Shown here piece by piece: positions 1,934 through 37,887 of a stretch of DNA of 37,887 nucleotides (the first letter of the stretch is position 1; each line of letters starts with the position of its first letter). The DNA lies in the IMG/VR virus record IMGVR_UViG_2875703104_000002; one strand, given 5' to 3'. Source of the DNA: a virus (Duplodnaviria; Heunggongvirae; Uroviricota; Caudoviricetes). A program made the translations under genes and the position numbers. The notes under the pieces were generated by a model that had not been told where the DNA came from, ran no database searches, and worked only from the letters and a program-made list of their open reading frames with translations.

Positions 1934-1955
1934 GCAGTATTAATTACTGCTTTTT
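1934..1955. terminator. Hairpin (GCAGTA-ttaat-TACTGC) followed by T5, overlapping the mom stop codon; possible bidirectional terminator
   Basis: 6-bp inverted repeat with 5-nt loop at 1934..1950 followed by TTTTT on plus strand and preceded by an A-run (U-run on minus strand). Confidence 0.3.
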
Positions 1956-2697
1956 ATTCATTACATGGGGATCGCTTAGGGTATGGCTGAACCTTGAATA
2001 GTTTGGTATTTAGCCGCTTCCTTGCTCGCTTGTTCAGGAATCTGATGTAGCGATACTGATTAAATTTGTGCACCACGGCACGCTCTTTATTAGCCCGTAA
2101 ATACACGCCTCGTTGTCCACCTCGCTTAATCGCGTTCATCGTTATCTCGTGATACCACTCACCATCCAGCTCGTAGAATGTACTTTCATGACTGCCAATA
2201 AAATCAAAATTCGACGCCTGATACACAACGCCTGCGCGTCCGCAGCGTTCGTCTGCAAAGGACTGAACCCACTCCACTGACGGATACAGTAACCTGATGG
2301 TTTTCAGTGCATAACTGATGACCCGTGATTCAGAGTTGCGGGGCATGTCATCGTGTAGCCACATGCGGTTCAACTCCATATAGCCCCGGTTATCCGTTTC
2401 AAGCACGACACGACGACCTGAGTTGGGGTTAAGGGCATATCCCCACTGGAGAACGCCAACCAGATCGCGTCCGCTGAATACTCCCAGGTGGAGGTAAGAG
2501 TTATTCACAAAACGGCGGGAATAGTGCTTTGTCTGAATAATTGTGCGGGCCAGCCAACAGGATATGGTTTCAACGCGCAGCTCCTTTGAACCATAGCCAA
2601 CAATCTGGCCTTCATACTCAATAACGCACGGTTTCGTCAGAATGCGTGATTTCTTCTCTTTTCCCACAATGTTTCTCCGTGGGATGCTCGCAGGCAT
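1954..2697 (-). CDS. mom: Mom DNA-modification (anti-restriction adenine modification) protein; true start may be downstream of the ORF-track start, near the com stop
   Basis: 247-aa ORF as last gene before the R-end, overlapping the 3' end of the com zinc-finger ORF, preceded by a GATC-cluster regulatory region; matches Mu com-mom architecture. Confidence 0.8.
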
Positions 2698-2806
2698 TCA
2701 GCATTATGATGTGACGTTTGCAACGCGGACACCTGATTTCAATGTGAACAAAGGAATCCGCCTTAAATAACAGTTTGTTGCAGTTTTTACAGCGAATTGA
2801 TTTCAT
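2618..2806 (-). CDS. com: Com, zinc-finger translational activator of mom
   Basis: 62-aa ORF with CxxC...CxxC zinc finger (CKNCNK...CPRCKRH); strong SD AGGAGG 5 nt upstream of ATG; overlaps mom. Confidence 0.8.
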
Positions 2807-2930
2807 CTCACCTCCTTTGCATCAATTCGCCACTATCTTAAAAAACATCATGAGTTGAGTGTGGTTATTGGGGCATAATCGATCTGTATTACCGATCGAT
2901 TCAATTGATTCGATCGTCGTTTTCTATATG
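2807..2930 (-). promoter_or_regulatory. mom/com late promoter region with three clustered Dam GATC sites (2881, 2894, 2912)
   Basis: Three GATC within 35 bp, 75-110 bp upstream of the com start; known Mu Pmom architecture (Dam methylation blocks OxyR; C activates). Confidence 0.6.
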
Positions 2931-3062
2931 TGTTCGCTACGGCTGGGTATCATTTCCGACGAGAATAAACAAAAATTAACCGAGTGGATGCTCTATGCGC
3001 AGAAGGTCGAATATACAGACACCTCCAGCCTGCCAGTAACGTTTCCCGAACAACCAGAATGA
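2931..3062 (+). pseudogene. 3' remnant of an alternative tail-fibre assembly gene (U'-like), convergent with U; N-terminal part missing
   Basis: Plus-strand ORF ends ...LTEWMLYAQKVEYTDTSSLPVTFPEQPE, resembling the conserved C-terminal motif of tail-fibre assembly proteins (compare U C-terminus ...[26 protein letters not shown]); only about 44 codons of homology, upstream part runs into the mom GATC region. Confidence 0.5.
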
Positions 3063-3090
3063 GAGAAGGCCCGGTATCGGGGCTTAATTT

Positions 3091-3618
3091 TTACTCTGGT
3101 TTTTGTGGCCATTCTGGCTTTGCTGTATCCACACGGCTGACCAGAACGCTGTAGCGTTCCCAGGCTTCCAGTCGTGTGCGCTCCTCATCCGTCGCCATAT
3201 TCAGCCTGACAGCGCGTTCCAGCTGCTGGATGACTGATTCAGCTTCGGAAAGCAATGCGGCCTTTTGTAATTCGGCCTGCTGTTGCTGCTCGTCTGCCGT
3301 ATAAATCCGTTTAACCACAGCTCCGTCCTTAAACAGCCACTTTCCTGAATCGTCGGCGCGACGATTGGCGGTGATATCGGGAACTTCGACAACGCTGTAG
3401 CCTGTAGGGTCCAGTGTTGAAGCGTCTCTGGTTACGGCCACAATAATATTGTTCTCGTCGTAAAGAATTTTTATTGTGTCCGGCTGAAAGTTCTTCACTT
3501 CCTCATACCAGTTTTTTCCGTCTTCTGACCACAGCCAGGCAACATTAAAATTTTTTGTTAGCTGATATTGCTCAACGGTTTTTGGATTGCCGGCGACAAT
3601 GTTTTTTAAATGCTGCAT
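3091..3618 (-). CDS. Tail fibre assembly protein (U-like, Tfa family)
   Basis: 175-aa ORF directly downstream of the tail fibre gene; C-terminal Tfa motif W-x-x-Y-x-x-L-x-x-VDT-x-x-PEWP. Confidence 0.8.
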
Positions 3619-3621
3619 AAA

Positions 3622-6266
3622 TTACACCTGTGACACGTTGTACCACGTTCCGTTAATTAACTTTTGTATTGGTCTGAATACTGCCGGATCGTCGCCATCA
3701 ACTTCGCCGACAATGCCAAGCCCGGTAATTACATGGCCTGATTTCTCATACATCACGCCTTTTTGCATGGTCTGAACAACACGTGTGCCAAGTCGGACAT
3801 CCCTCACGTATCGGCCATCAAAATTGCCGTAATCCGAGGGGTTAACGCGCCCCGTAATATTTACGGTTTTATTACTCTGAATGCTGCCGGAAACAAAGCG
3901 CATAACATGGACGTTATTAGCATAAACATCCAGATTACCATCACCATTTTGTTTAAAGCCCGTGTCATTATCACCCAAAACAATCGAATTACCGCCAAGA
4001 GCACTGGATGTTCCTATACCCAGAGCACCATTCAATTGACCACCAGATAACGGCAGTGCACCGACATCTCCCGCTGTAGGTTTTCGCGTTGTGGTATAAA
4101 ACTCAGACCAGTCAGCCTCGAATCCGTAACCGTCACGAGCAGAACGATAAAAAATACCACCGTTCTTATAATTAACGCGAAACTGGGCGGCGGGACAACT
4201 TCCTTCACCGATATTAAAATGAAGAATTAACGTTGATGCCCCACCAATATTTGCGTTATAGGCTCCGCTACTCCAGTTCCATCCAACGGCTTTATCATTC
4301 GCAACGGTGTCTCCTGTTTTTCCTGAAGCAAATGCACCAATATTTTTCGGCGTCAGGTTAATATCTGATGTTCCATCAAACGAAACGTTATTAATTTTAT
4401 TCCTGAAGCAAATGCACCAATATTTTTCGGCGTCAGGTTAATATCTGATGTTCCATCAAACGAAACGTTATTAATTTTACGGGCTGTTTTCAGCTTTGTT
4501 GCTGTCGCCGCATTGCCGGACAGTTCACCAGAAAGGCCAGCACTGAATGCCTGTTTCGCGCCCCATGTCTGGGCTTCGTCAATGATTGGTACTCGTCTTG
4601 TTGTGATCGTGCGGCTTCCCGGATTTCCTGAAATGCGCACCATAAAAAAGCGGTAGTTGGCTTTACTTACAGTGCTGCGCCATACATGCATTGAGCGCCC
4701 CGTACCGGAATCATCACTCGGACCAACTGCGATGTTTATCAGGTTGCCATCAATGACGCCCCAGTCCATACCGTCGGGAATATTGGTCATATTATCCAGC
4801 CGAACGGTTATCAGACTGCCCGGCACAAAATCGTAGGTCTGCCAGTCCAGACTGGATAGTTTTGCCACTGCGCCACCGATGCCCAGATTCAGGGGAAGTG
4901 AATAAGATGTGTAAACTTCCCGCCATTCGCTCCATGAGCTGCCGGTAAAAACGCGCTCAAACGTGCGACCTTTAAGGGTTGTACCTGTTCCGGCAGTTGT
5001 ATAACGCTGCCATACGTTAACACCATCAAAGCGCCTCAACACTTCCAGAATACCGAGGACTGTCACGCCGTTTCCGTCCAGTATTGGACCGTTGGTTGCT
5101 TTACCTGTAACGCTGTAAATACCTGGTGAAGTCACATCATTCAAATCCCCGTCGTAATAACGACTCTCTGACTGATGACCGACTCTTAACCACGGTTCCC
5201 ACTGTGGGTTCTCTGCATTCCATGTAGCAGAAAGGCAGCGAACATATACGTTCCCACGGCGGGTCGTATAGCGTTGCGTGCGTGAGTACCCACCACCCTC
5301 AAGAACTTCAAGGAGTCCCTGACCATAACTTCCTTCTTCCGGATAGTTGCGGTCAAATGAAGCGATAGAGCCACTACTGTTTCGCCATAAACCAAGATGC
5401 TCTGCGCCTCCTAGCGTGTTCAGGTCAATAGCTGTGCTCAGGGGGCGTGTTGCAGACTGAATCTGACGCCAGTAGCTCCACGGACCGTCTGAGCCATTCC
5501 AGGTGCCAGAAAGATTACGCATATAAACATTGCCAGTTCTGGTGGTATAACGCTGCATTCCGGAAAAATTACCGCCATTGAAGACCTCAAGAACACCGAC
5601 TGCACCGTCTTCAGGGAAATTTTTCTCCAGTGTTGCGTTGGAGGATGTGGATTTATACCAGACACCCACATAAGCCTTAACTGGACCAAATGTATTGATA
5701 TCAGCATCAACCGGCATTTCGCCGTTGTTTTTCATAAACGTCAGGCTGGTAACGCCAACATTGTCCAGAAAAGCTGATTTATCCTGGATATCTGCACCAT
5801 TCTGATTTTTCGCCAGACGTGAATTTGCGTTGTCATTTGCTGCCTTGACCGCTTTTGGCGTTGCGGCGAGTGCTTCGGATGTGCTGTTGGTAGCACTACT
5901 TAGCTGAACCAGCCCCTTTTTGCTCACGCTGGCATCATAAATACCCAGATTTTCACGTGCTGTGCGCTGTGCTGATGCCCCGGCAGTTTTTATTTCGCTG
6001 AGGTTATTTTTTATCAGCAGCGCGTTCTTGTTCATGATGGCTTTAATGGACAGTGCAAGCTGGTTTAATTTTGTTTTATCCGGTTGAATACCGGCTTCTT
6101 CCAGCGTGTTTAATAACTCCGCCTGCACAATATTAAACCAGTCCATGCCGGGCCATGTGATAACATTATTCCCGTCACCTTCTGAAAACCAGCGAACGAT
6201 AGCACTACGCTGGGCGGATACGGGCGGCATGACGGTTACGCCGCTGTCGTTATCAATATAAAACAT
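3622..6266 (-). pseudogene. Tail fibre protein (S-like), frameshifted by an 80-bp tandem duplication: 637-aa N-terminal ORF 4353..6266 plus out-of-frame C-terminal continuation 3622..4320
   Basis: Hand translation shows minus-strand frame continuous from 4398 to 3622 with no stop; ORF1 and that frame encode the same peptide KINNVSFDGTSDINLTPKNIGAFASG across the two repeat copies; removing one copy fuses them into about 854 codons. Confidence 0.8.
4320..4479. repeat. Perfect 80-bp tandem direct duplication (copies 4320..4399 and 4400..4479) inside the tail fibre gene
   Basis: Both copies read TTCCTGAAGCAAATGCACCAATATTTTTCGGCGTCAGGTTAATATCTGATGTTCCATCAAACGAAACGTTATTAATTTTA; 80 is not a multiple of 3. 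Confidence 0.97.
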
Positions 6267-8319: not shown

Positions 8320-8909
8320 TGCATTGGCCCCGTGGTTCCGCCGCTGTCGCCACGGTGGATATGCTTATCCGTCGATTTGCCATTGATGATGGCATCCGGG
8401 GCAGTAATATTGCTGTCGAACTGGCTTTTACCTTTAACGCCCAGACCTTTCTGGATCTCAACGTCGCCGGTAAACGTGGTTCTGGGTGTGTCAACGGTCA
8501 TACTTTCATCAGCGTAAACCTCGACCGTTTTACAGGTAATGATGCAGCGTCCGTCCTTTGTCAGCCTGATACGATGCCCCTCATGGTGGTAAATGCCTGC
8601 ATCACCCGGTTCAAGATTTGTCGGGCGGTAGCGGCGGTCTTCCACCACAACGGCGATCCCCTGATCACGTTGTGCACCCACACAGGCAATCAGCGCCTCT
8701 GCGCCCGGCAGGGGAACGCTGAAATGTCCGTAATTTTGCAGGCGCTCCACTTCATCGGATTCCTCATCATCCAGCAGACCGACCTGCAGGTTCTGAACCT
8801 TTCGCCCGTCGTTAATCACGTTAACAACAGCGCGCGCAAGCATCAGGCGCACACGACGCATCAGCGGCGTCAGCAGGCGGTTCAGGGCGGAATCATTTAC
8901 TCTTTCCAC
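8316..8909 (-). CDS. Baseplate hub/spike protein (Mu gp45-like)
   Basis: 197-aa ORF; position and size match Mu gp45. Confidence 0.65.
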   Translation of the reverse strand: MERVNDSALNRLLTPLMRRVRLMLARAVVNVINDGRKVQNLQVGLLDDEESDEVERLQNYGHFSVPLPGAEALIACVGAQRDQGIAVVVEDRRYRPTNLEPGDAGIYHHEGHRIRLTKDGRCIITCKTVEVYADESMTVDTPRTTFTGDVEIQKGLGVKGKSQFDSNITAPDAIINGKSTDKHIHRGDSGGTTGPMQ

Positions 8910-10036
8910 GGCGGTGTTTTCTCCGGGTGTCTGCGATAATAATCTTCAACCAGCGCATCAATACCGCCGTTACTGTCGCCGCCTTTCCTGTTTTTACGGT
9001 CGCTTTCAACCGGCACCAGAAAGCCTTCGCGTGGTGCAAGGCTGACGCGGGTTTTCAGCCCGTCCTGGTCATTCAGTATCAGGGTGACTTTGCTGACCAG
9101 TAATTCCGTGGTTTTGATGGCATATTTCGAGGCATCAATAGTGACCAGCAGGTTCGGCATCCAGAGTTGCCCGTCCTTGCGAGTCCATCCGTCAATTTCA
9201 GCCTCAAAGGTGATGGATTTTGCCAGTCTGCGGCGTTGCTCACGCAGGGCGCGGGCCTGTGCATCCTTCGCCGTAATTTTGCTGTCGGCAATGATGATCA
9301 TCGGTCTGTAACGGGTCACATCACTGTCAGTGGCGGTCCCTTTCCGGGAGACGATACTTTTCGCATCAATATCATCACCCTCAGCACCGTTTGCGCGGGC
9401 ATACCCCTTGACGGTGTATTCGCTGAACCGGTCGCGGAAGTCTTCCTCAAAATCCAGTGTCAGCAGATTTTCTCCGAGAACCAGCTCATCAGTGGCTGTG
9501 CTGGCAGCCCGGCTGAATACCAGCTCTCCGGCGGCATTGCTGGTCATCAGTACACCGCGTGCGCGGGAGGCACGCACCAGCGCCTCATAAACGGTTTCTG
9601 AATGGTCCAGCGTGAAGCCGGGAAAAGCTGCCGAACTTTCCTTATCGGAAAGCTCCCAGCGAACGGTAACGCCATAAGGGGTGCACAGGTCACGCGCAAT
9701 CTGCTCCAGTGTGCGGTTTTTCCACTGTCCGCCACTGTAAACGGCAGCACAGTCAATCAGGTCAGCCGTTTTGTCACGTCCGGCGATAGTGATTTTCATG
9801 CTGTCAGCGGTCATCTGGCGTCGCCGCGAATCGATATAACCGGTGCAGACAATCTGCCCGTCGATTTCCAGCGTGAACGCCTTCCCCGGTGCCAGCCCGG
9901 ATAAATCCGTGCCCGGTGGCACGTTCACCCCCAGCTCAAAATATCCGGCTACGGATTCAATGGAGCGGGTGACAGAAACTGACGACCAGCCGGTAAACAG
10001 CCTGCCATCCGCTCGCAGTGTGACGGTATTACTCAT
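8897..10036 (-). CDS. Baseplate protein (Mu gp44/P-like)
   Basis: 379-aa ORF between the N-like gene and the hub gene; size matches Mu gp44. Confidence 0.7.
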
Positions 10037-11516
10037 TAATCACCTCAATACTGACACCACCGGGAACAAATAACGGGTTGCTGCTGCCATTCCTGCGGGC
10101 CAGCCGTTGCCAGTTCCGGCCGTTTCCTGTGTAACGGTACAGGGCCACCACTGCGGGCATCGTCTCCGGCAGGCTGTGCATTTCACTGCCCGCCAGTTGC
10201 AGTCCGCGTTTTTCCAGGTCAGCAACAACCAGCAGGCGCAGTTGCGTAAGCTGAACGCTGTCTGTCGAAAAACCCTGCTCAGATGCCGTCAGAATGACAC
10301 TGTCCAGTGCGGCCCCCAGCATGGCTGTGGTTTTTTCGATATCGGACACACTTTCAAATACCGGGGGCGTGGCTGTACCACTGTCTGAAAAGGATACCGG
10401 TGAAAAACCGCCGTCCGGGGTTATGGCAGTTAACTGTAACTGTCCCTGTGTGACGGTAGCGGATGTGCTGCTGGCCCCGCTGGCTGTGCCGGTTGTGGTG
10501 GACAGGGCATCCAGTACAGGTGCACGGGCGGCATTATCCATCCGGCGACTGAAATCCAGTGCCGCAGTCAGTGCCTGGCTGGCAGCTTCTGCCCGGTATG
10601 TCTGCGCCGCTGCCAGCATGACGTAGTTCAGTGTGGCAATATTTTTTTCTGCAACCGGACTGTTGTACGAGGTTGTGATTGCCCCCTGTCTGCCTGCGGT
10701 GGCGGCATGGCGACGTTCGAATCGCTGCGCCAGACGGTTCCAGGTGGAAAATGCTGTCCGGGTATCGCATAACGATGAAACGCCGGACAGCGCCCCCATC
10801 AGCGAGGAGGCCAGCATGGCAGGCTGGTTAATCAGGCTGGTCACAGAGCCTTTCATCGCAGAAAGCGATCCCATCAGACCGCTGACAGTCTGCGTAACCC
10901 CCAGATTGTCCACCGCATCACTGATATCATCGATGACACCGGTTACAGCTTCCATCACGGCGGTTGCCGCCGCAGTGCCATCTTTTACGGTCTGCCAGAC
11001 AGAGGACAGCGTATCCCCCAGAGAACCGGTTACAGCAACGGCCTGTGCCGGTACGGCTGCACTGGTGTCTGTCTCTGCGTCCGGGGCAGTATCCTGCAAC
11101 GACGGATAAACGGTAACGGTGAACGCGTAATAATTCAGTTCATCCGCTTTAGTGCGACATTCCCATGAATCCACCATGACGTCCACAGTGCCGAAATCAG
11201 GATGTACCAGTTCACCGCTACCCGGAGCATCAAGAGCATCCATCAGCGCACCCGCTTCATCTCTGGCTGTTTCTGCGTTGCTGTTCAGAATGCAGGCGCT
11301 GAATGTACGGGAGCGAAGCTTTTTCCCCAGGTCATTGACGCCGCCGGTATCACGTAACGGGTACTCGCGTTTAACCAGGCGACGTCCGCCAGCCTGTTTT
11401 TGCTCCTCGATGACGAGAAACGGCACGTTACGGAACGTGCCTTTGCCGGTTGTTTTCTTACCACCGCTGATTTTATCCCGGACAGCATTAACGGCATTTA
11501 AAGCATCTTCAAACAT
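10029..11516 (-). CDS. DNA circularisation protein N-like (Mu gp43-like)
   Basis: 495-aa ORF immediately downstream of the tape measure gene; size and position match Mu N. Confidence 0.7.
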
Positions 11517-11520
11517 GGTT

Positions 11521-14007
11521 TTACCAACCTGTAATGTAGTTATCGCCCGCGTAAATATTCAGCCCCATACCATCCTCGGTGACGCGGGAACTGGTCAGAC
11601 GTAACCCCTCGCCGAGTTCGACGCGCAACGAGGCTTCCGCATTGACTTTTTGTTCCTGCGGTTCCTTATCCGTGGCCGTCCATTTCTGATACAGGTCGGT
11701 TACAAAACCGCCCAGATACTCCCCGGCGACACTGCCCAGCGTGGCACCGGCAACCGTACCCAGCGGTCCGGCAAGGCTGCCAACGGCACCGCCGAGCCAT
11801 GCACCGGCTGTACTGCCAATTGCGCCTGCTTTTTCATGGGTTGACGCCTGTTCATCCATCAGGACGGGGGCAAGCTGGAGTGCCCCCATTACCGGGCCAC
11901 CCAGACGTGACAGGGCACGACCGGCACCTTTCCCCATCCAGCCCAGCGCCCCGGCACCTTTTGTCACAACCCGACCGATCGCACTGCCTGCAAGTTTGTT
12001 TCCGATACCGGAAAACCACCCGCCAACGGCACGCCCGGCATCAGCCAGCTTTCCGACCGTTCCCGTAACCAGTTGCCCGGCAGCACTGCCTGCAAGCCTG
12101 CTCAGAAGACCGGATTTACCGGGCAAAGGCTGTGGCGCAGGGCGTGGTATTACCGGCACGCCCGGAGATGGCACGGGCTGCCTGTTTCCGGCACCGGAAA
12201 GCAGTCTGCTGACAGTACGCCCGGCATCCGCCAGCGTTCCTGCCGCTCCCGTAACCTGCTGCGCGGCAGCGCTGCCTGCCAGCTTGCCCGGAAGACCGGA
12301 TTTAGCGGGCAAAGGGCGTGGCGCGGGGCGTGGTATTACCGGCACGCCCGGAGATGGCGCGGGCTGCCTGTTTCCGGCACCGGAAAGCAGTCTGCTGACA
12401 GTACGCCCGGCATGCGCCAGCGTTCCTGCCGCTCCCGTCACCTGCTGCATGGCAGCGCTGCCTGCAAGCCTGCCCGGAAGACCGGATTTACCGGGTAAAG
12501 GTCGTGGCGCGGGGCGTGCTGCTGCCGGAACGCTGGGTGGGGGTAATGGTGCAGGCCGTGCTGTTACCGGTACGCCGGGTGGGGGTAATGCCAGTACAGG
12601 GCGTGGTGCAGGTAATGCCAGCGGCTGTGGCCCGGACAGCAATAACGGCTGGCGGGGTAACAGCGTGGGCATTCTTCCGCCGCTCCGTACGCGACGACCG
12701 CCGCCACTCCCGTAGCCACCAAATCCACGGGGCCAGTTGATGACAAACACACGCTGAATGCCGATACCCTGCAACAGCGTCTCAGACGTCATGGCATCCG
12801 GGACCGGCAGGCCTGCCTGCCCACGTTTGCGGTTTCGCATCCAGCGCCACATACGACGCCCGGTTTTAAACGGATAACTGGCAACCTGCCATGAGGGTTT
12901 TGCCACGGCCCAGCCTGCTCTCAGGGCTTTATTGGCAAGCCAGACAGACACCAGAACAGCAGCCAGTTTTTTCAGGCTGACAATATTCTGGTCAACCCAT
13001 GCCAGCGCATCTTTACCCGGTTTCAGCCAGCGCCATAATTCCTGCGCCGCGATTTTTACCGTTCTGAACGTGGTCAGAAATTTCTGACCAATGTTTTCTG
13101 CCAGTGCGTCAAGTTCCCCGGATTTATCCGCCATGTCGTGCCAGTTAAGCACCCGGCGCATCTCGTTCTTGATTTCTTCAAAGGGGCCGCTGTTTGCCAC
13201 CTTTATGCGAAATTCAAGCAGGTTGGCTTCCATCTGTGCGAACATCCCGTCCCAGGAGTTCATCGCACTGGCTTGTGCACCTTTTGACTGTTCTGACAGC
13301 GTTCTGAATACCGTCAGAATGGATTTCATGCCCAGCTTGCCCTTTGTACCCAGATCACGGATTTTTTTAACGTCCGTTCCCGTTGCATCCGCCAGCGCCT
13401 GATAAACATTGATACCGTAACCGGTCAGCAGGTTGGCATCCGCCGCCGTGATTTGCTGGCGGGCAAACATCTGTTTCAGTTGCAGTGAGGCACCCTGTGC
13501 AGTGGGTAAATCCCAGCCGTGCATGGCCCCCTGATCCTGCAACATGGTGATGAACTGTTTCGTCTGTTCATCCGTCATGCCGAAGCCTTTCGACGAACGG
13601 ATCTCATCCAGAACACCACTCAGCCCCCACGTGGTGTCCTTCGCGTTCTGCTTCGCCCAGGCCATCATAGCCTGCGCTCTGACCTTATCGCCGTGATACA
13701 GCGAGTTCATAGCGATGATCTGCTGCTCACGCTGGGCGGCTGCACCAATAAACAGTTTATTGGCGGTGTAACCCACGCCAGCGATACCCAGCGCCCCGGC
13801 TGACAGCATTCGGAATGTACGGGTTGACAGAGAACCCATTCTGTCAATTGCACCAGAAACGCGCACAACCTCCATACGCAGGGCTCGCAGGGAACTCTGC
13901 CCACTACGGGACAGGGCGTTTATCTGGCTCGAATACTGGCGGGAACGCCGGGAAAGATTGCCATTAAGATCAATAATGACAGACGCCTTTAAGCGTTTCC
14001 CGGTCAT
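11521..14007 (-). CDS. Tail tape measure protein
   Basis: 828-aa ORF between tail chaperone and baseplate genes; Gly/Ala-rich C-terminal region, Pro-rich linker and internal 62-aa tandem repeats. Confidence 0.85.
11959..12516. repeat. Three tandem 186-bp (62-codon) repeats inside the tape measure gene (12331..12516, 12145..12330, degenerate 11959..12144)
   Basis: Near-identical DNA units starting TGGTATTACCGGCACGCCCGGAGATGG at 12145 and 12331; encoded units RPAPRPLP(G/A)KSGLPG(R/K)LAGSAA...PSPGVPVIP. Confidence 0.85.
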
Positions 14008-14151
14008 AGAGATTTCCTGATTTAACGGTGGTATTGAGAGAGGTTTTTAGCCAGCTGGCAGTGCCGGAAAAAGCGGGACAGCGGGAGAGACAGAACCCAT
14101 TCAGGGCCACTTTTCAGAATAACACCCGTCGCTGTCACCGCTTTCTCAATA

Positions 14152-14586
14152 TCATTCCGGCACCGCAGCCACTCGCCCCCGTTCTTGTGTCAGCGATGCT
14201 GCAACCGCCATGTCGTACATTTCTGTGGCCAGCGACAGACGCTGGAAGTCATCGGCGGACAGCTTACGGATCAGCGCCATTGACAACGGGCCTTTGATGC
14301 AGCCCACGCTGGCAATCTGTCGGCGCAGCATTTCCAGCCCCATCCGGGACGGGGAACTGACCAGCACCGGGCCTTCCTTGCTCATTACCAGCTTTTCAGC
14401 AGCCGCCTGGGCATCAATCAGATCGCCTGCGGTCAGTTCACGCAGCGTCACGTCATACTGCATTTCAGTTTCGTCATCAGTGCCGAACGGCAGGCCGTCT
14501 TTCAGTTTCAGCACGCCGGACTGGATTTCTGCCACAATGCTGTCATGCAGCTCCTGCGCTTCAGGCCCCAGATTCATTTCTTCCAT
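14152..14586 (-). CDS. Tail assembly chaperone-like protein (Mu gp41-like)
   Basis: 144-aa acidic ORF between tail tube and tape measure genes, the usual chaperone position. Confidence 0.6.
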   Translation of the reverse strand: MEEMNLGPEAQELHDSIVAEIQSGVLKLKDGLPFGTDDETEMQYDVTLRELTAGDLIDAQAAAEKLVMSKEGPVLVSSPSRMGLEMLRRQIASVGCIKGPLSMALIRKLSADDFQRLSLATEMYDMAVAASLTQERGRVAAVPE

Positions 14587-14595
14587 CGTTTCCCC

Positions 14596-14952
14596 TTATG
14601 CAATGCGTTTGCTTTGTTTTGCCATCAGTACCAGCGAAATTTCGCCGCCGTCGTTTTTCGGTTCATCTGCCTGCCAGGCATTCGCCATCATCCAGGTTTC
14701 ACCGGTGTCTGCCTGAAACTCTGCCGTGATGTTTTCCCAGCTGATAATTTCATCCAGACCGATATCACCACCGCCCGGAATTTTGCATTCCAGCTTTGCG
14801 GCACGTGGTTTACCTTTCCAGCCATAAACCCGCGAGCCGGTCACTTCTTCACGGGTGATGCCGGAAGGCGTGAAGGAGGCACCTTCCATCGTTTCAAGCT
14901 CCATGCCATTGACACGGATGAACGCCACCCCCTGGCGCTGAGTTCCAGCCAT
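14596..14952 (-). CDS. Tail tube protein (Mu M/gp40-like)
   Basis: 118-aa ORF directly downstream of the sheath gene. Confidence 0.75.
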   Translation of the reverse strand: MAGTQRQGVAFIRVNGMELETMEGASFTPSGITREEVTGSRVYGWKGKPRAAKLECKIPGGGDIGLDEIISWENITAEFQADTGETWMMANAWQADEPKNDGGEISLVLMAKQSKRIA

Positions 14953-14961
14953 AAATACTCC

Positions 14962-16449
14962 TTACAGAATGAACTGAATTTGCGCCGCAAAAATGCGGAA
15001 CTGGTTGATCAGATTCGGGCCGCACAGCACATCAAGACGGTCTTTGTCATCGCTGTTACGTGCAACGTACAGCTCCTCTTTGAACGTGTCGAAATCCTCA
15101 ACCAGCCCGGAGCTTTCCCACTCTTCAAACAGTGCCAGCAGCTCCGTTTTGATCACGGATGGCGTCACCACGGGCTGACCGGTGGCAAAGCGGGTGCCGT
15201 CATTTGCCAGCTTGTAGTTCGGGAATTTCTGCGTGATGCGGGTTCGCAGCGAATAACGCAGATAACTCAGCGTGGCGATGGTATTCACGTTCAGATAAGA
15301 CGGATCACTGTCACCGTACTTGTTTGTGCGGTACATCGTGATCATGCGTTCAATCTGCATTTCACCACCATCATTCACGTTAAACGTGGAGATGCCGTCA
15401 AACAGCAGCGCATTACGTTCTGACCAGGTGAAACGCTCCCCCACCGCAGGCGGCATTCTTCCGGGTAACGTCAGCGTCTGGAGAGGACGCGCCGGGTCGA
15501 TGGAAAGCGCCTGGCTGGCAACGGCACACAGTGTGGCGGCGTACAGATATGACGGTTCCGGTGCACCGGCAATCCCCATACAGGAGATCAGATGGTCATT
15601 ACGACTGACACCAAACGTGGAAATATCCCCATACGTGCCGGACAGCACTGTCACGGCAAAGCCATCAGCCTGATTGACCGGTCCCCAGCGTTCCTGTAAT
15701 TCCGTGCGCAACAGATTCAGGTTCGCTTCATCGGTATAGGGCATCACAATATATTTGTATTGCAGATCGCCCATTCCCGCGATACTTGCGCTGATATCCG
15801 GGTTGCCATTTTTCCCGGAGGCGGCTTTGAATGCCGTGATAATCCCGTAAGGGGTGGTTTCACCCGCGTAATAGTTCCAGCGCACGTCCACGGCAGATAA
15901 TGCACCCGTAAATTTTGCACTCAGAACCACATCTGCATGGGTGTCATCATCTCCGCTGTCTGCGCGAACTTCTGCCGTCACCGGTAAATCAGGCTGGCCT
16001 TTGATTCGGGCAACCAGCAGGTCAGCCAGCGCAGCCCCTGTAGCACCTGCTGCGACAGATACCGTCAGTCGCTGACCGGCAATGTAAGTCACAAGCGAGC
16101 CGTTTTCGCCAGCCGTTCCTGACAGTGAAATTTCACCGACAGCAGCATTACCGGTGCCGTTCCCCTGCGGAATACACCACAGCTCCGCCACGCGGTTAGC
16201 GTTCAGGAATGCAGCTGCCATCAGTGCCAGCATGGAACCCTGACCAAACGCCGCACTGGCCTGTGAGCCGGAACGGATACGGACAGGCACGTTTGGTGCC
16301 GCACTGGCTTTACTTCCGCTTTGCCCGAACATCAGCACGCGCTGACGGGGTGCTGGTGTTCCGCTGACGGCATTACTGTTATCAAATTCGATATACGTCA
16401 GAGGAACGCGAACATCTGACGGGATCGCGTTAAATGAAATATCGCTCAT
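14962..16449 (-). CDS. Contractile tail sheath protein (Mu L/gp39-like)
   Basis: 495-aa ORF upstream of tube gene; size and position match Mu L. Confidence 0.85.
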
Positions 16450-23585: not shown

Positions 23586-25306
23586 TACCAGCCCCCTCGT
23601 TCAAACTGGTGATAATCATCAAAATCATCGTTATCAACATCATCACCACGGTGGCGTGGTGGCAGCGCCTGTATGCTGTCCTCGTCGATAACAAAACCAT
23701 TCATATAAGACGCCCTGACAGCCATACAGAGCGCCACGGCAAAGTCGCCATGTCGTCGGCCTTTACCGCCTTCATCTTTTGTGCGCCCCTTATCAATCTG
23801 CGGAATACCTTTGTCCACCTTGATGTGGAGCAGGTCATCAAGTGTGGTCTGGTGCCGGGCAATCGTGATGTTCTGCGCTTCAAACTCGCCTTTCAGTTTC
23901 GGCATCCACTCCTGATACCAGGATGCGGTCAGATTCACACAGTCGATCATCTCCGGGCCATAAATCAGACGGGCGGCTTCTGCCAGATAACCGCCGTTAC
24001 CGGTGGCATCAAATGCAGCGCCGGTAAAACGGGGCAAACGGGACAGAATGAATAAAAGGATTTGTCGCTGCTGGTCATAGGTCACATTACGCAGCTCCAC
24101 GCGGAAACATTCGCGTTTGCGTAAGTCAGGAGTGATGGCAAGCGGAACAAACACCGTAAGGTCACCACGGCGTGCAAAGTCTTCGCCCAGTACGTGTTTA
24201 TTGAGCGGCGACAGCGCATCGAGCAACGGGAGCAGCTCCTGTTCACACCAGTCCTGAACGATGCCGTGGCGCATTTGTGGTGTCAGCGATTCAAAATCGT
24301 CCGGGGCTTCAAAACGCAGAATCGGGATATCCCGCGCTGGCGTCATGGCGGCTTCAATCAGCACGCGTGACAGATAAGCGCCCCCGGATTTTTTAGGAAT
24401 GCAGCCGTATTCCTCGTCGGCACTCTCTTTATTCGGCGCATTCCGGTACAGGCCATCACGCCAGGCTTTTTCCGCTTCCGGCGACCACGGCTGATTCGTG
24501 ACGTAACAGATACGTCGGTACAACCCGTCAGCGATGGCATCATCCAGCGTGATGCGGTGAACGCTGTAATCCTTGCGCCCCTCGCGCGCATCCTGAATGT
24601 ACTGGTTAAACAGGTTATCGACGCCGTTATGTGTCGATATGATCCGCACGCGGGCACCCCACATGGTGAGAGCAAAAGCCGCTTTCAGCAGTTCGTCCAG
24701 GGCTTCATGAAATGCCGCCTCATCAATCACCACGTCCCCCTGCAAACCACGCAGGTTAGACGGACGGCTTGACAGCGCCTGCACCTTAAATCCGCTGTTA
24801 GGGAAACGGATCATATAAGTGAGGATTTCTTCTTTTTTGTCGCTGTCCCAGAAGGTCTGCTCCCATACGTCAGCCTTTGCCAGTTGGTTAAAGGCGCGGG
24901 CAAACAGGGCACAGGCGGCAATGTATTCCAGCGCCATTTCCTGACGGGAACCCACATAAAAAACGTTGCGACCGCCACGGCGACGCGGCTTTGCTGCCGT
25001 CATGACATTGCGGCCCGCTTCGGCCCATGTCAGACCGGTACGACGGGATTTTTCAGCAATACAAATCTGGCTTTCATCCTCAAACCAGCGGCGCTGATAG
25101 CCCAGAAAAACCGGTTCATTAGATGGCTGGGCGTTAGTGATGTCTGTAACGATCTCGACACCAAGTTTGGTTGCTTCTTCCTGAAGATCAATCTGACGGG
25201 GTTCACTTGACGGAATCAGTTTTTTGCCCCGGCTATTTTTTTCATACCCCATTATTTTTTCAGCCATAATACTTCGGTTTTCTTTAAATACCTGAGGGAA
25301 CGTCAT
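23585..25306 (-). CDS. Terminase large subunit (Mu gp28-like); alternative start at 25267 (MAEKIMGYE...)
   Basis: 573-aa ORF at the head of the structural block; acidic C-terminus; the ATG at 25304..25306 shares two bases with the plus-strand ATG at 25305..25307. Confidence 0.85.
   Translation of the reverse strand: MTFPQVFKENRSIMAEKIMGYEKNSRGKKLIPSSEPRQIDLQEEATKLGVEIVTDITNAQPSNEPVFLGYQRRWFEDESQICIAEKSRRTGLTWAEAGRNVMTAAKPRRRGGRNVFYVGSRQEMALEYIAACALFARAFNQLAKADVWEQTFWDSDKKEEILTYMIRFPNSGFKVQALSSRPSNLRGLQGDVVIDEAAFHEALDELLKAAFALTMWGARVRIISTHNGVDNLFNQYIQDAREGRKDYSVHRITLDDAIADGLYRRICYVTNQPWSPEAEKAWRDGLYRNAPNKESADEEYGCIPKKSGGAYLSRVLIEAAMTPARDIPILRFEAPDDFESLTPQMRHGIVQDWCEQELLPLLDALSPLNKHVLGEDFARRGDLTVFVPLAITPDLRKRECFRVELRNVTYDQQRQILLFILSRLPRFTGAAFDATGNGGYLAEAARLIYGPEMIDCVNLTASWYQEWMPKLKGEFEAQNITIARHQTTLDDLLHIKVDKGIPQIDKGRTKDEGGKGRRHGDFAVALCMAVRASYMNGFVIDEDSIQALPPRHRGDDVDNDDFDDYHQFERGGW
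25241..25270 (+). promoter_or_regulatory. Putative sigma70-like promoter for the plus-strand gene (-35 TTCATA 25241..25246, -10 CATAAT 25265..25270)
   Basis: Hexamers with 18-bp spacing read by eye about 35 bp upstream of ATG; lies within the 5' end of the terminase ORF on the opposite strand. Confidence 0.3.
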
Positions 25307-25793
25307 GTCACCAAAAGCAATAAAACTACTTGAAATATTTTGTGAAACAGAATTAAAGCAATCTATGGATACTGTTCAATTTGTCTCAATAAACGGATGG
25401 GAAACACTTCAGCGCCTTTGGCCCCTGAATGAACGATTCACACCACGCATAGAGCAAATCAGAACGATTAGCTACAGAAAGCAATTTGAAAAAGCCGCAG
25501 ATAACGCCATTGAGGATTTTCTGATGAAGGATGATGACTGGTCAGAAATTCCATTAGTTGTCTGGCGTGTTCTTCTGGAACGCCATAATCAAGCAACGAT
25601 TCTCTGCGTAACTAATGCACTCGCCAATAACACCGAACTTATGCACATCCCTGTCGGACTTTCTCAGTCGGCACAAACAAAATTTGCAGTAGCTTATTTG
25701 TATTACGCAATGAAGCTCCCATATAAAGTGCTCGGTGAATCACAGCTTGACATTGAATCACCGTTTGAGTATCTGAACACCCGGCTACAGTAA
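25305..25793 (+). CDS. Hypothetical protein (162 aa), reverse-oriented accessory gene between terminase subunit genes; function unknown
   Basis: Only plus-strand ORF in a non-coding gap of the minus-strand late operon; SD GAGGGA 6 nt upstream of ATG; strongly AT-rich (first 60 nt about 27% GC); followed by hairpin terminator; no TM segments or catalytic motifs recognised. Confidence 0.75.
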   Translation: MSPKAIKLLEIFCETELKQSMDTVQFVSINGWETLQRLWPLNERFTPRIEQIRTISYRKQFEKAADNAIEDFLMKDDDWSEIPLVVWRVLLERHNQATILCVTNALANNTELMHIPVGLSQSAQTKFAVAYLYYAMKLPYKVLGESQLDIESPFEYLNTRLQ

Positions 25794-25806
25794 AAGCCTT
25801 TCGATG

Positions 25807-25839
25807 GGCGCTGATTAGCAGCGCCTTGTAATCATTTTT
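25807..25839 (+). terminator. Rho-independent-like terminator (GGCGCTG-attag-CAGCGCC then TTGTAATCATTTTT) downstream of the plus-strand gene
   Basis: 7-bp perfect stem, 5-nt loop, T-rich tail, 14 bp after the stop codon. Confidence 0.5.
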
Positions 25840-25852
25840 CATAACGTAACTC

Positions 25853-26443
25853 CTACGCTTTACCCAGCAACACATCACGGATACGCTGCTCCAGTTCTTC
25901 GCTGATACCATCCTGCCCGCGCAGTTCTTCACTGACGGCGTTTGCCGCTTCTTCTGCGAATGCCTGGCGGATTTCTTTCTCGCGCCGGTGGCTGGACATT
26001 GCCGTGGATTCCAGACGCTGTGCCGCCAGCATGGCATTTTTCAGCAGGTCAATATCCACGTCAGATTCCGGGTTTTCGATTTGCCGCATCATGGCCTTAA
26101 AAAGCTGGCTGCGGGCCATTTCCAGAATCAGCTTTGTGGTTTCTCCCATTGGCTTGTCGCCAAGTTCTGCGGTCAGTGCTGACGTCATTTCACGCATCTG
26201 TCGCAGGTTATGGCCTACCTGTTCGACGTTCGTCGCGTAACGGTTCAGACCGGAACGGGAGAGTTTCATCTCATCCGGCAGGCCAGCGTCTTCAATCAGT
26301 GCGTTAATTTCTTCCAGAATGCGGGCCTGTGGGATCGCTTTATCACGCAGCATTTCATGCAGCGTTTTACGTACGTTTTCTGGCAGTAAATCCACTTTTG
26401 AAGCCCGGCCCCGTGTTTTCCTGTCCATCACGCCTCCTGTCAT
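25853..26443 (-). CDS. Terminase small subunit-like DNA-binding protein (Mu gp27-like)
   Basis: 196-aa ORF immediately upstream (in transcription order) of the large terminase region. Confidence 0.65.
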   Translation of the reverse strand: MTGGVMDRKTRGRASKVDLLPENVRKTLHEMLRDKAIPQARILEEINALIEDAGLPDEMKLSRSGLNRYATNVEQVGHNLRQMREMTSALTAELGDKPMGETTKLILEMARSQLFKAMMRQIENPESDVDIDLLKNAMLAAQRLESTAMSSHRREKEIRQAFAEEAANAVSEELRGQDGISEELEQRIRDVLLGKA

Positions 26444-33205: not shown

Positions 33206-33225
33206 TGTCAGCGTTCCTTTGCGAA

Positions 33226-33495
33226 TTAATGTTTAACCGCATTCACCGGATGTGGTACTAAATCACATTCAGCCTCCATACCCACTTTCTTCATAGTGGT
33301 CAGCATCTCATCTTTGGCCTTTTTAATAATTTCAGGAGCCATAGTCAGGACGATATTTGCCAGTAAATCATGAGGCCCGGTATTTTCCGTTGGCGAGATA
33401 TCTGCAAGACATGCTTTTGCATCCAGAACTTCTCTGCGCCCATTGCAACCTTCACTACTTTCCAGCCATGTAAACTCAAAGATAACTTTTGCCAT
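33226..33495 (-). CDS. Hypothetical early protein (89 aa)
   Basis: ORF in the semi-essential region. Confidence 0.5.
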   Translation of the reverse strand: MAKVIFEFTWLESSEGCNGRREVLDAKACLADISPTENTGPHDLLANIVLTMAPEIIKKAKDEMLTTMKKVGMEAECDLVPHPVNAVKH

Positions 33496-36955: not shown

Positions 36956-37177
36956 CTAGTATCGAGACGGCCAAATATCTTGCGGTGTCATTCCCAGTGC
37001 ATCTGCAATGATTTTCTCCGCTTTCGGATATCTCTTATCCAAAGCATTTTTTAATGTTGAAGACGAAAGATGATTAGATCTTCCCAATTCAGCTAGTGAC
37101 ATATTGCGTTTTCGTAGCTCTGCAACGATGTCAGCTCTGTGCCAATCTTGGCGGTTAGTTCTTTTATTCATATGCAT
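36956..37177 (-). CDS. ner: Ner, early negative regulator (D108 type)
   Basis: 73-aa ORF with [13 protein letters not shown]...WPSRY motifs, first gene of the early operon, preceded by an 11-8-11 palindromic operator. Confidence 0.85.
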
Positions 37178-37362
37178 TTCATGTAATCCTTTCAGATTCC
37201 CCCGTGAGCTACGCTATAAAGTAGCTCACGGCATATCGTGCAATGTAGTGTGGAATCATTTTTAAATCAATAGTGATTTGAAAGGATTTATCATGATTTC
37301 ATATAACAGCATGATTTTTATATGAATTTATTTTGTCTCTATTGAAATCACTAGGATTTTAA
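37178..37362. promoter_or_regulatory. Immunity/operator region between ner and c (divergent Pe and Pc promoters, repressor and Ner operators)
   Basis: 185-bp AT-rich divergent intergenic region with repeated TTGAAA/TTTCA-type motifs and a perfect palindrome. Confidence 0.6.
37202..37231. promoter_or_regulatory. Ner operator: 11-bp inverted repeats CCGTGAGCTAC / GTAGCTCACGG separated by 8-bp AT-rich spacer
   Basis: Perfect palindrome 25-54 bp upstream of the ner start; matches the architecture recalled for the D108 Ner site. Confidence 0.6.
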
Positions 37363-37887
37363 ATGATGTCTTTTGAAATCAAAGAATGGTTTAATGCGAA
37401 AGAGCTGGAAGGGATGCCTGGTGTACCAAAGTTGGCGACTAACATTACCAGGAAAGCTGTGGCGGAAGATTGGGTAAAACGTCAGCGTCACGGTGGGAAA
37501 GGTGTCGCTTATGAGTATCACATCAACAGTCTGCCAGAAGAAACACGCAGGGCCATTAAAGGAGCCTCACTTTCTGATAAACCAGTGCATACATCAATCG
37601 TCCATACAGTTGATGAGAGGCTAATTTATGCAATGAGTTTCTTAACACCAGATGAGCAGGCCGCAGCAGTGGAGATCATTCGTGTAGCAGGGATTAAAGG
37701 ACTTATGCCTACAATTGTCAGTAAAGATAAGGCATTAGAGGCATTAGGGATTACTGTGGAGCAACAGAAAACCCTGCAAACTCTTCAGGCATTACCACCG
37801 GAAAAAGTGAGAGAGATTTTGTCTCAGTATGAAGGCAAAGAACATAATTTCCCTGTAAGAGAAAACGATGTAAAGAAAGCTGTATAA
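37363..37887 (+). CDS. c: Lysogeny repressor c (D108-like)
   Basis: 174-aa ORF divergent from ner; N-terminal DNA-binding domain paralogous to the MuA N-terminus; C-terminus ...VKKAV. Confidence 0.8.
   Translation: MMSFEIKEWFNAKELEGMPGVPKLATNITRKAVAEDWVKRQRHGGKGVAYEYHINSLPEETRRAIKGASLSDKPVHTSIVHTVDERLIYAMSFLTPDEQAAAVEIIRVAGIKGLMPTIVSKDKALEALGITVEQQKTLQTLQALPPEKVREILSQYEGKEHNFPVRENDVKKAV

Follow-up and report, generated by a model that had tools for sequence, protein, structure and literature searches.

A modular expansion of the gp42 tape measure gene in a Mu-type prophage and its predicted effect on tail length

How does a tape measure gene come to carry a tandem array of long in-frame repeats, and what would such an array do to the length of the tail? 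The question is raised by IMG/VR virus record IMGVR_UViG_2875703104_000002, a 37,887-nucleotide (nt) stretch of DNA, hereafter the window, which holds a Mu-type E. coli prophage in reverse orientation. Its tape measure gene, the ortholog of Mu gp42, encodes 828 amino acids (aa) on the minus strand (11521-14007; protein WP_129017337.1/QAU80625.1) and contains three in-frame repeats of 186 base pairs (bp). The account that we regard as probable, albeit with real reservations, is that gp42 has here been expanded by a set of modules, that the allele is a mosaic, that the array has been shrinking, and that the insertion is predicted to lengthen the ruler on which the tail is built.

Anatomy of the insertion in gp42

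Tandem Repeats Finder placed the array at 12031-12518 (period 186, 2.6 copies, 91% matches, no indels, score 808); the window as a whole (37.9 kb) has just one other strong tandem array. Together with pairwise comparison, this located the three in-frame copies that a preliminary description of the DNA had reported. The copies at 12145-12330 and 12331-12516 share 176 of 186 nt (94.6%) and 57 of 62 aa, and the copy at 11959-12144 has 70-71% nt and 57-58% aa identity to either of them. Below approximately 11990 the identity at an offset of 186 fades, which limits the homology of the third copy to about its first 48 aa. Translated from the minus strand, the units end in PSPGVPVIP.

Alignment with Mu gp42 (NP_050646.1, 690 aa) resolves the difference between the two proteins into a single clean insertion of 138 aa, or 414 bp, at aa 489-626 (12130-12543). 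Outside the insertion the window protein is 99% identical to Mu gp42, and a whole-window BLAST comparison with Mu breaks at 12165-12542. The inserted segment consists of two 62-aa units and one duplicated 14-aa Pro-rich mini-unit; the latter belongs to a 42-bp tandem mini-repeat (aa 475-502, P14a and P14b) that the preliminary description had overlooked. The order of the modules is P14a-P14b-core1-P14c-core2-P14d-core3, of which Mu holds only P14a-core3, the insertion being made up of P14b, core 1, P14c, core 2 and P14d. Four copies of the Pro-rich 14-mer are present, at aa 475, 489, 551 and 613, with one closing each 62-aa unit, and there are three copies of the 48-aa Gly/Ala-rich core (PLPGKSGL...SGAGNRQPA). 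Along the minus strand, a Pro/Gly-rich linker delimited by composition and alignments (aa 396-474; 12586-12822) is followed by P14a (aa 475-488; 12544-12585), which is present in Mu and is of the Mu type by alignment and by informative sites, and then by P14b (aa 489-502; 12502-12543). Comparison of the units places extra unit 1, a core plus P14c, at aa 503-564 (12316-12501), extra unit 2, a core plus P14d, at aa 565-626 (12130-12315), and the core of unit 3, which is native to all Mu gp42 proteins, at aa 627-674 (11986-12129).

In the PLPGKSG register, 12 of 186 nt distinguish extra unit 1 from extra unit 2 (10 of 186 in the register of the preliminary description), and the longest exact run common to both is 54 bp. 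Ten codons differ between them, six nonsynonymously and four synonymously. The core of unit 3 is 99% identical in nt to that of Mu and 78-79% identical to those of units 1 and 2. This copy had been called degenerate; its lower identity is borne out, but it is actually the single native unit of every Mu isolate. A search with a hidden Markov model of the core (hmmsearch) found a fourth, apparently ancient and very degenerate copy directly after the native unit (aa 671-702; 11902-11997; independent E-value 2e-4), with a counterpart in Mu gp42 at aa 533-564. Since Mu has this copy too, older duplications would have made this part of the protein, and one motif, duplicated again and again, seems to have given rise to the C-terminal third of gp42.

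Composition follows the same layout. The Pro-rich stretch expected ahead of the units is present, with 21% Pro and 14% Gly in aa 396-502, as compared to 1% Pro in aa 1-395; the two extra units (aa 503-626) contain 16% Pro, 15% Gly and 17% Ala. Between allele lineages, no part of the protein varies more than the linker at aa 396-474, and the C-terminal 17 residues (aa 812-828, equivalent to Mu residues 674-690; 11524-11574) are invariant in the alignment.

The gene is the ortholog of the Mu tape measure gp42, in line with its earlier assignment to a Mu-like prophage. It is 98.2% identical to Mu gene 42 (24131-26203) over the 85% that the two share, and it lies in a prophage that is collinear with Mu at 97-98%, the breaks being the tail-fibre region, a few short stretches and the insertion. 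Pfam family TMP_3 (PF20155) is matched at aa 106-266 (13210-13692, minus strand) with 60.5 bits against a cut-off of 41 (E 2.3e-16). The order of genes is that of a tape measure gene, downstream of sheath (14965-16449) and tube (14599-14952) and between the tail assembly chaperone gp41 (14155-14586) and the hub genes gp43 (10032-11516) and gp44 (8900-10036); Mu has the same flanking genes, gp41 upstream and gp43 downstream, and the same hub-binding C-terminal tail. Because the gene is, outside the insertion, 98% identical in nt and 99% in aa to Mu gp42, a protein shown in the tail lumen (PMC11915804), it qualifies as the ortholog of a lumen-filling protein.

Alleles, mosaic origin and contraction

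Copy number varies among relatives of the gene, as the preliminary description had allowed for, with classes of 690, of 814 and of 828/766/704 aa; an ancient feature fixed at one copy number in all relatives, which would have told against that description, is not what we find. All 13 sequenced phage isolates of the Mu type (Mu, D108, SfMu, Yersinia phages and others) carry a 2073-bp one-unit gene of 690 aa, and the window's additional 138 aa occur in none of them. The gene is present in 44 of 5,426 complete E. coli genomes, with a length of approximately 2073 bp in 39, 2112 bp in three (the SE11 type, which has a different Pro-rich linker) and 2445 bp in two, strains 1290 and S6, which carry an identical 814-aa gene (WP_096956390.1). 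In the protein collection, the lengths form a ladder relative to Mu of 690, 704 (+14), 752 (+62), 766 (+76), 814 (+124) and 828 (+138) aa, with 690 aa in 98 of 120 clusters among those listed. The exact 828-aa protein of the window is recorded on a 5.11-Mb E. coli contig, for a one-residue variant of it 34 contigs are listed and 37 blocks of the collection hold an index entry, and the 814-aa variants listed come to about 190 contigs in total, some of them 5.27-5.36 Mb long. No gene longer than 828 aa was found in this collection.

A scan of one genome per species yielded no confirmed relative of the 138-aa insertion. A profile search of the three units against 1.84 billion representative proteins gave six matches, namely two one-unit fragments of Mu gp42, one weak match to the Gly/Ala-rich core in a distant tape measure protein of 2258 aa and three low-complexity chance matches (transferrin/WAP, RTX and similar proteins). 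With only gp42 fragments and one weak distant tape measure protein among these matches, the idea of a widespread domain was rejected, and the repeat unit appears to be private to Mu gp42. When 50,697 phage records were searched by distant BLASTN for a donor of the extra units, only unit 3 of the Mu family came up, at 78-80%, and literature searches turned up no account of length polymorphism in the gp42 of Mu-type prophages.

The DNA identity of the two near-identical copies had been read as the mark of a recent duplication, a reading that the comparison of alleles does not sustain. Over the 138-nt core, unit 2 of the 828-aa allele is 99% identical to unit 2 of the 814-aa allele, and unit 1 is 96% identical to unit 1, as compared to 94-96% between units 1 and 2 within an allele and 78-82% between either extra unit and unit 3. 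The 814-aa protein of strains 1290 and S6 thus has the same two extra units at the same position, each the positional ortholog of its counterpart in the window. Some 4% of positions (104 of 2445 aligned nt) separate the two lineages, and this orthology across alleles indicates that the duplication predates their split.

The 814-aa allele is otherwise unlike that of the window: the duplicated 14-mer is missing from it, and both its linker and its unit 3 belong to another type. To place these differences we used 78 sites at which Mu and the 814-aa allele differ. Up to nt 1415 of the gene, the window agrees with Mu at 39 of 45 informative sites and with the 814 type at six. At nt 1479-1505, within P14b, it agrees with the 814 type at nine consecutive informative sites, and within the insertion 20 of 372 nt distinguish it from strain 1290. 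At nt 1904-2035 it is again like Mu, at 15 of 15 sites, and the last nine informative sites are mixed (four Mu, five 814 type). Unlike the 814-aa allele, the window allele is therefore of the Mu type on both sides of a patch, and by these sites it reads as a mosaic, in which a Mu-type backbone carries a second 14-mer and two 62-aa units related to those of the 814-aa allele. Two origins would fit this pattern. An out-of-register exchange with an 814-type relative may have brought the P14-u1-u2 patch into a Mu-type gene; alternatively, a common ancestor may have had the arrangement P14a-P14b-u1-u2-u3, in which case the short form of Mu would be a deletion.

Shorter alleles differ from the long ones by exact losses of whole units. 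In the lineage of the window, the 704-aa gene of prophage L010 shows no nt difference over 2115 aligned positions and an exact gap of 372 bp, with 19 bp of identity at the junction, and the 766-aa gene of L007 shows none over 2301 positions and an exact gap of 186 bp, with a 24-bp junction. Three-, two- and one-unit alleles thus exist with no other nt difference. In the 814 lineage a three-unit and a two-unit allele are likewise identical apart from a 186-bp gap (L002, 814 aa, and L008, 752 aa; 51-bp junction identity), and the 752-aa proteins fall into three junction classes. The 12 differences between units 1 and 2 could not be regenerated from a one-unit gene, which gives the direction of change as contraction, and counted in this way from the alignments there are at least five separate contraction products in two lineages. 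The array would accordingly be one that shrinks by recombination or slippage between its units. The locus had been proposed as a site prone to both expansion and contraction, of which contraction is what we see; no expansion was seen, and nothing exceeds 828 aa.

Predicted tail length and competing explanations

The Mu tail is a stack of 30 hexameric rings of tube protein gp40 and sheath protein gp39, each ring adding a rise of ~35 Å. Its lumen is filled by trimeric gp42, to which the setting of tail length is ascribed, and cryo-electron microscopy resolves only gp42 residues 674-690, bound to hub gp44 and spike gp45 (PMC11915804). The ring stack of 30 x 35 Å = 1050 Å divided by 690 aa gives 1.52 Å per residue, or ~23 aa per ring; put the other way, 690 aa at 1.5 Å come to 1035 Å against the 1050 Å of the ring stack. 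In the window protein, a gp42 trimer would fill the lumen with its C-terminus anchored in the hub, and the insertion would lie ~200 aa (~9 rings) upstream of that anchor. At this distance above the hub it would be inside the lumen and should lengthen the ruler. At the Mu ratio, the 138 aa would translate into ~6 more tube and sheath rings, that is, a tail of ~36 rings and ~126 nm instead of ~105 nm in Mu. On the same basis, the predicted gains are ~6.0 rings for the 828-aa protein, ~5.4 for 814, ~3.3 for 766, ~2.7 for 752 and ~0.6 for 704 aa. Of the ten codon differences between units 1 and 2, six are nonsynonymous, and all alleles keep the frame; what seems to matter is thus the length of the modules rather than their sequence.

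Several observations weigh against this reading. The effect on tail length is a prediction from the ruler model and the Mu ring count. The modules are rich in Pro and Gly, the AlphaFold2 confidence is 30, and the rise per residue could lie anywhere between less than 1.5 Å, if the chain folds back, and ~3 Å, if it is extended; by our estimates, the gain could reach ~9 rings if the 26 Pro-rich residues of each unit were extended at ~3 Å, and could fall to 2-3 rings if the cores fold back. The sequenced Mu-type isolates, 13 out of 13, have the short allele, the long allele being known from prophages, and the prophage of the window has a frameshifted tail-fibre gene. All of the shorter, contracted alleles come from draft or metagenome assemblies (GCA_023868335.1 and GCA_037632015.1 are examples of drafts that give 766, 752 or 704 aa), and in one project the 766-aa proteins are thirteen different mosaics of unit variants, several of them on contigs of exactly 96,247 bp.

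Of the alternatives, one fares best, although we do not think it the likely one: the expansion, lying in the flexible Pro/Gly-rich part of gp42, may leave tail length unchanged, being taken up as slack or fold-back in the lumen, and any role would come after ejection, in spanning the periplasm or conducting DNA. Module number would then tune the crossing of the envelope instead of the length of the tail. Tape measure proteins are ejected and are thought to form a channel, according to the introduction of PMC5099701, and that of Mu is ejected on contraction (PMC11915804). An AlphaFold2 model of the 828-aa protein, built on a 14-sequence alignment, is unusable other than as a weak hint (mean predicted local distance difference test score 30.3, predicted template modelling score 0.20); at this very low confidence, DSSP assigns helices to aa 1-395 and coil or other non-helical structure to aa 398-645. 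The cores are Gly/Ala-rich like the region downstream of them, where aa 730-767, outside the units, give a sub-threshold match to the glycine-zipper family PF13488 (17.9 bits against 25, E 0.003), the only such match; the repeat units themselves give none. Against slack speaks, first, the behaviour of other phages: in-frame insertions and deletions away from the termini of the tape measure protein scale tail length in every system tested, as given in PMC5099701 and, for T4 and lambda, as cited in PMC13585406. Second, the 690 aa of Mu, Pro-rich linker included, already fit the ring stack at 1.52 Å per residue, which leaves little slack. Third, a KD19 scan found no hydrophobic stretch within the repeat units, the sole segment above 1.2 being at aa ~350.

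If the insertion does lengthen the ruler, one can go further, tentatively and to a point that we think rather unlikely. The 704-, 766- and 828-aa alleles, with 752 and 814 as a parallel pair, would then be a natural isogenic series of Mu rulers, and discrete morphs of ~30, 33 and 36 rings would circulate in E. coli, the long morph being kept by selection or the series reflecting a tuning of conduit length. In the former case, the long morph, which is the commonest state in its own lineage, might be selected because, for example, a longer tail gets through thicker surface layers to the outer membrane; in the latter, module number would tune the length of the conduit that ejected gp42 forms across the periplasm.

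Phages with the long allele do seem to be viable. Prophage L010 is 99.8-99.96% identical to that of the window over 22 kb, but the host DNA that flanks its Mu right end is not the same, and two prophages with the other 828-aa variant (L011 and L012) have yet other neighbour genes beyond mom. Such independent insertions argue that long-allele phages assemble and infect. The prophage of the window is itself another matter. A perfect 80-bp tandem duplication (2.0 copies, 100%) at 4320-4479 lies in its minus-strand tail-fibre gene (open reading frames 4353-6266 and 3622-4035), and as 80 is not a multiple of 3 the frame shifts, which leaves a fibre of 637 aa in place of one of 854 aa. In L010 the duplication is absent and the 854-aa fibre is complete. 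Barring a sequencing error at the duplication, the prophage of the window probably has a defective fibre.

These data also bear on the proposal, which we regard as improbable, that the expansion is neutral junk in a decaying prophage whose tape measure is no longer under selection. The frameshifted fibre is what such decay would look like, and the ratio of nonsynonymous to synonymous change between units 1 and 2 is not low (six codons against four). However, the remaining structural genes are all full length, with an aa identity to Mu of 94-99% for sheath, tube, gp41, gp43 and gp44 and of 94-100% once the rest of the head and tail genes are included, the frame of gp42 is kept in every allele, the near-identical L010 has its fibre intact, and long-allele prophages occupy several chromosomal sites, as expected of an active transposing phage.

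The tail-fibre region differs from that of Mu in layout as well. In 1954-6266 there is neither a gin invertase gene nor the alternative S'/U' genes, so the G-segment host-range switch of Mu is absent, and the order is fibre, fibre-assembly protein, com and mom. The 814-, 828- and 704-aa prophages looked at share this gin-less layout and have fibres of 851-854 aa; in the 814-aa strains the region is 92% identical to that of the window.

The quality of assemblies concerns the ladder of alleles more than the window. Many database entries are partial tape measure proteins that end at aa ~440-530, showing that contigs break at the repeat. The 766-aa set of the project mentioned above looks like a consensus over a collapsed repeat and was mostly rejected as a clean copy-number ladder. 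By comparison, the 766-aa allele P0011/L007 recurs in several independent assemblies, and junctions of 19-24 bp do not offer a k-mer assembler enough identity to jump, so the 704-aa allele of L010 and the 766-aa allele P0011/L007 are probably real. That the repeats were spuriously expanded in the assembly of the window itself can be set aside as barely credible, for all that short-read drafts struggle at this locus and can yield unit mosaics on contigs of equal length: 12 positions separate unit 1 from unit 2, and an independent lineage has an ortholog of each; identical three-unit genes occur in two complete genomes; the exact 828-aa protein stands on a 5.11-Mb contig; its one-residue variant in 37 blocks is flanked by differing genes at the loci read; and nothing interrupts the reading frame. 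We thus take the array, from the sequences compared, to be real, and the concern over assembly applies more to some of the short draft alleles. In practical terms, the locus fragments or garbles short-read assemblies, and draft tape measure lengths of Mu-type prophages are not to be trusted without long reads.

Genomic setting and relation to known rulers

The remainder of the window adds some features of the prophage. Host DNA occupies 1-1856, the Mu right end lies at about 1857, and the left end of the prophage falls outside the window, whose end cuts the repressor gene. The immunity region (36959-37884) is unlike that of Mu, with a repressor 30% identical to Mu c and a Ner protein 49% identical. 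Two stretches, 25120-25860 and 33220-33485, have no BLASTN match to Mu amid the collinear alignment. Between gp41 and the start of the tape measure gene there are 144 bp with no called gene (14008-14151), and the same is found in Mu (23987-24130); in many phages this is the position of the frameshifted extension of the chaperone.

Opposite the repeats, on the plus strand, an open reading frame of 324 aa runs from 11741 to 12715. It had been put down as spurious, and the analysis concurs: shuffling of synonymous codons gave an antisense open stretch at least as long as the observed 341 codons in 51 of 500 cases, and no Pfam family matched. In Mu the open stretch is 203 codons, which is 341 minus 138. 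The frame stays open because Gly/Ala/Pro-rich sense sequence rarely makes stops on the opposite strand, and the open reading frame was rejected as a real gene.

Rulers that vary by repeat number are already known from siphophages, whose tape measure proteins carry variable numbers of in-frame 11-aa repeats with aromatic markers (Belcaid et al. 2011, PMC3271669; Mahony et al. 2016, PMC5099701). The likeness lies in the in-frame tandem units, in a copy number that differs between relatives by duplication and loss, and in the linear shortening of the tail that follows deletion, as measured in TP901-1 (PMC5099701). The units differ: those of the window are 62 aa long, a 14-aa Pro-rich part with a 48-aa Gly/Ala-rich part, and belong to a phage with a contractile tail. 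Units 1 and 2 lack W, F and Y altogether, and an 11-aa periodicity is not seen in them. Most tape measure proteins of myoviruses lack tandem repeats, according to a 2026 survey (PMC13585406). The same survey cites T4 gp29 and lambda gpH for the principle that the length of the tape sets that of the tail (Abuladze 1994; Katsura & Hendrix 1984).

The length series of the Mu type, at 690, 704, 752, 766, 814 and 828 aa, is natural and partly isogenic. The length variants of T4 gp29 and lambda gpH, by comparison, are reportedly engineered duplications and deletions made in the laboratory.

What the window adds is therefore natural variation in the repeat number of a ruler protein, a kind of variation that is already known, in the model phage for contractile tails, and it is otherwise the expected variation in a well-understood class of proteins. 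Its value comes from the phage in which it is found. Mu has a cryo-electron microscopy structure of the whole virion in which gp42 is visible only in its last 17 residues, and a natural, partly isogenic length series of this protein would provide a ready test of the ruler model in a contractile tail. Such a series asks how many residues correspond to one ring, and whether Pro-rich and Gly/Ala-rich modules count in the same way as helix.

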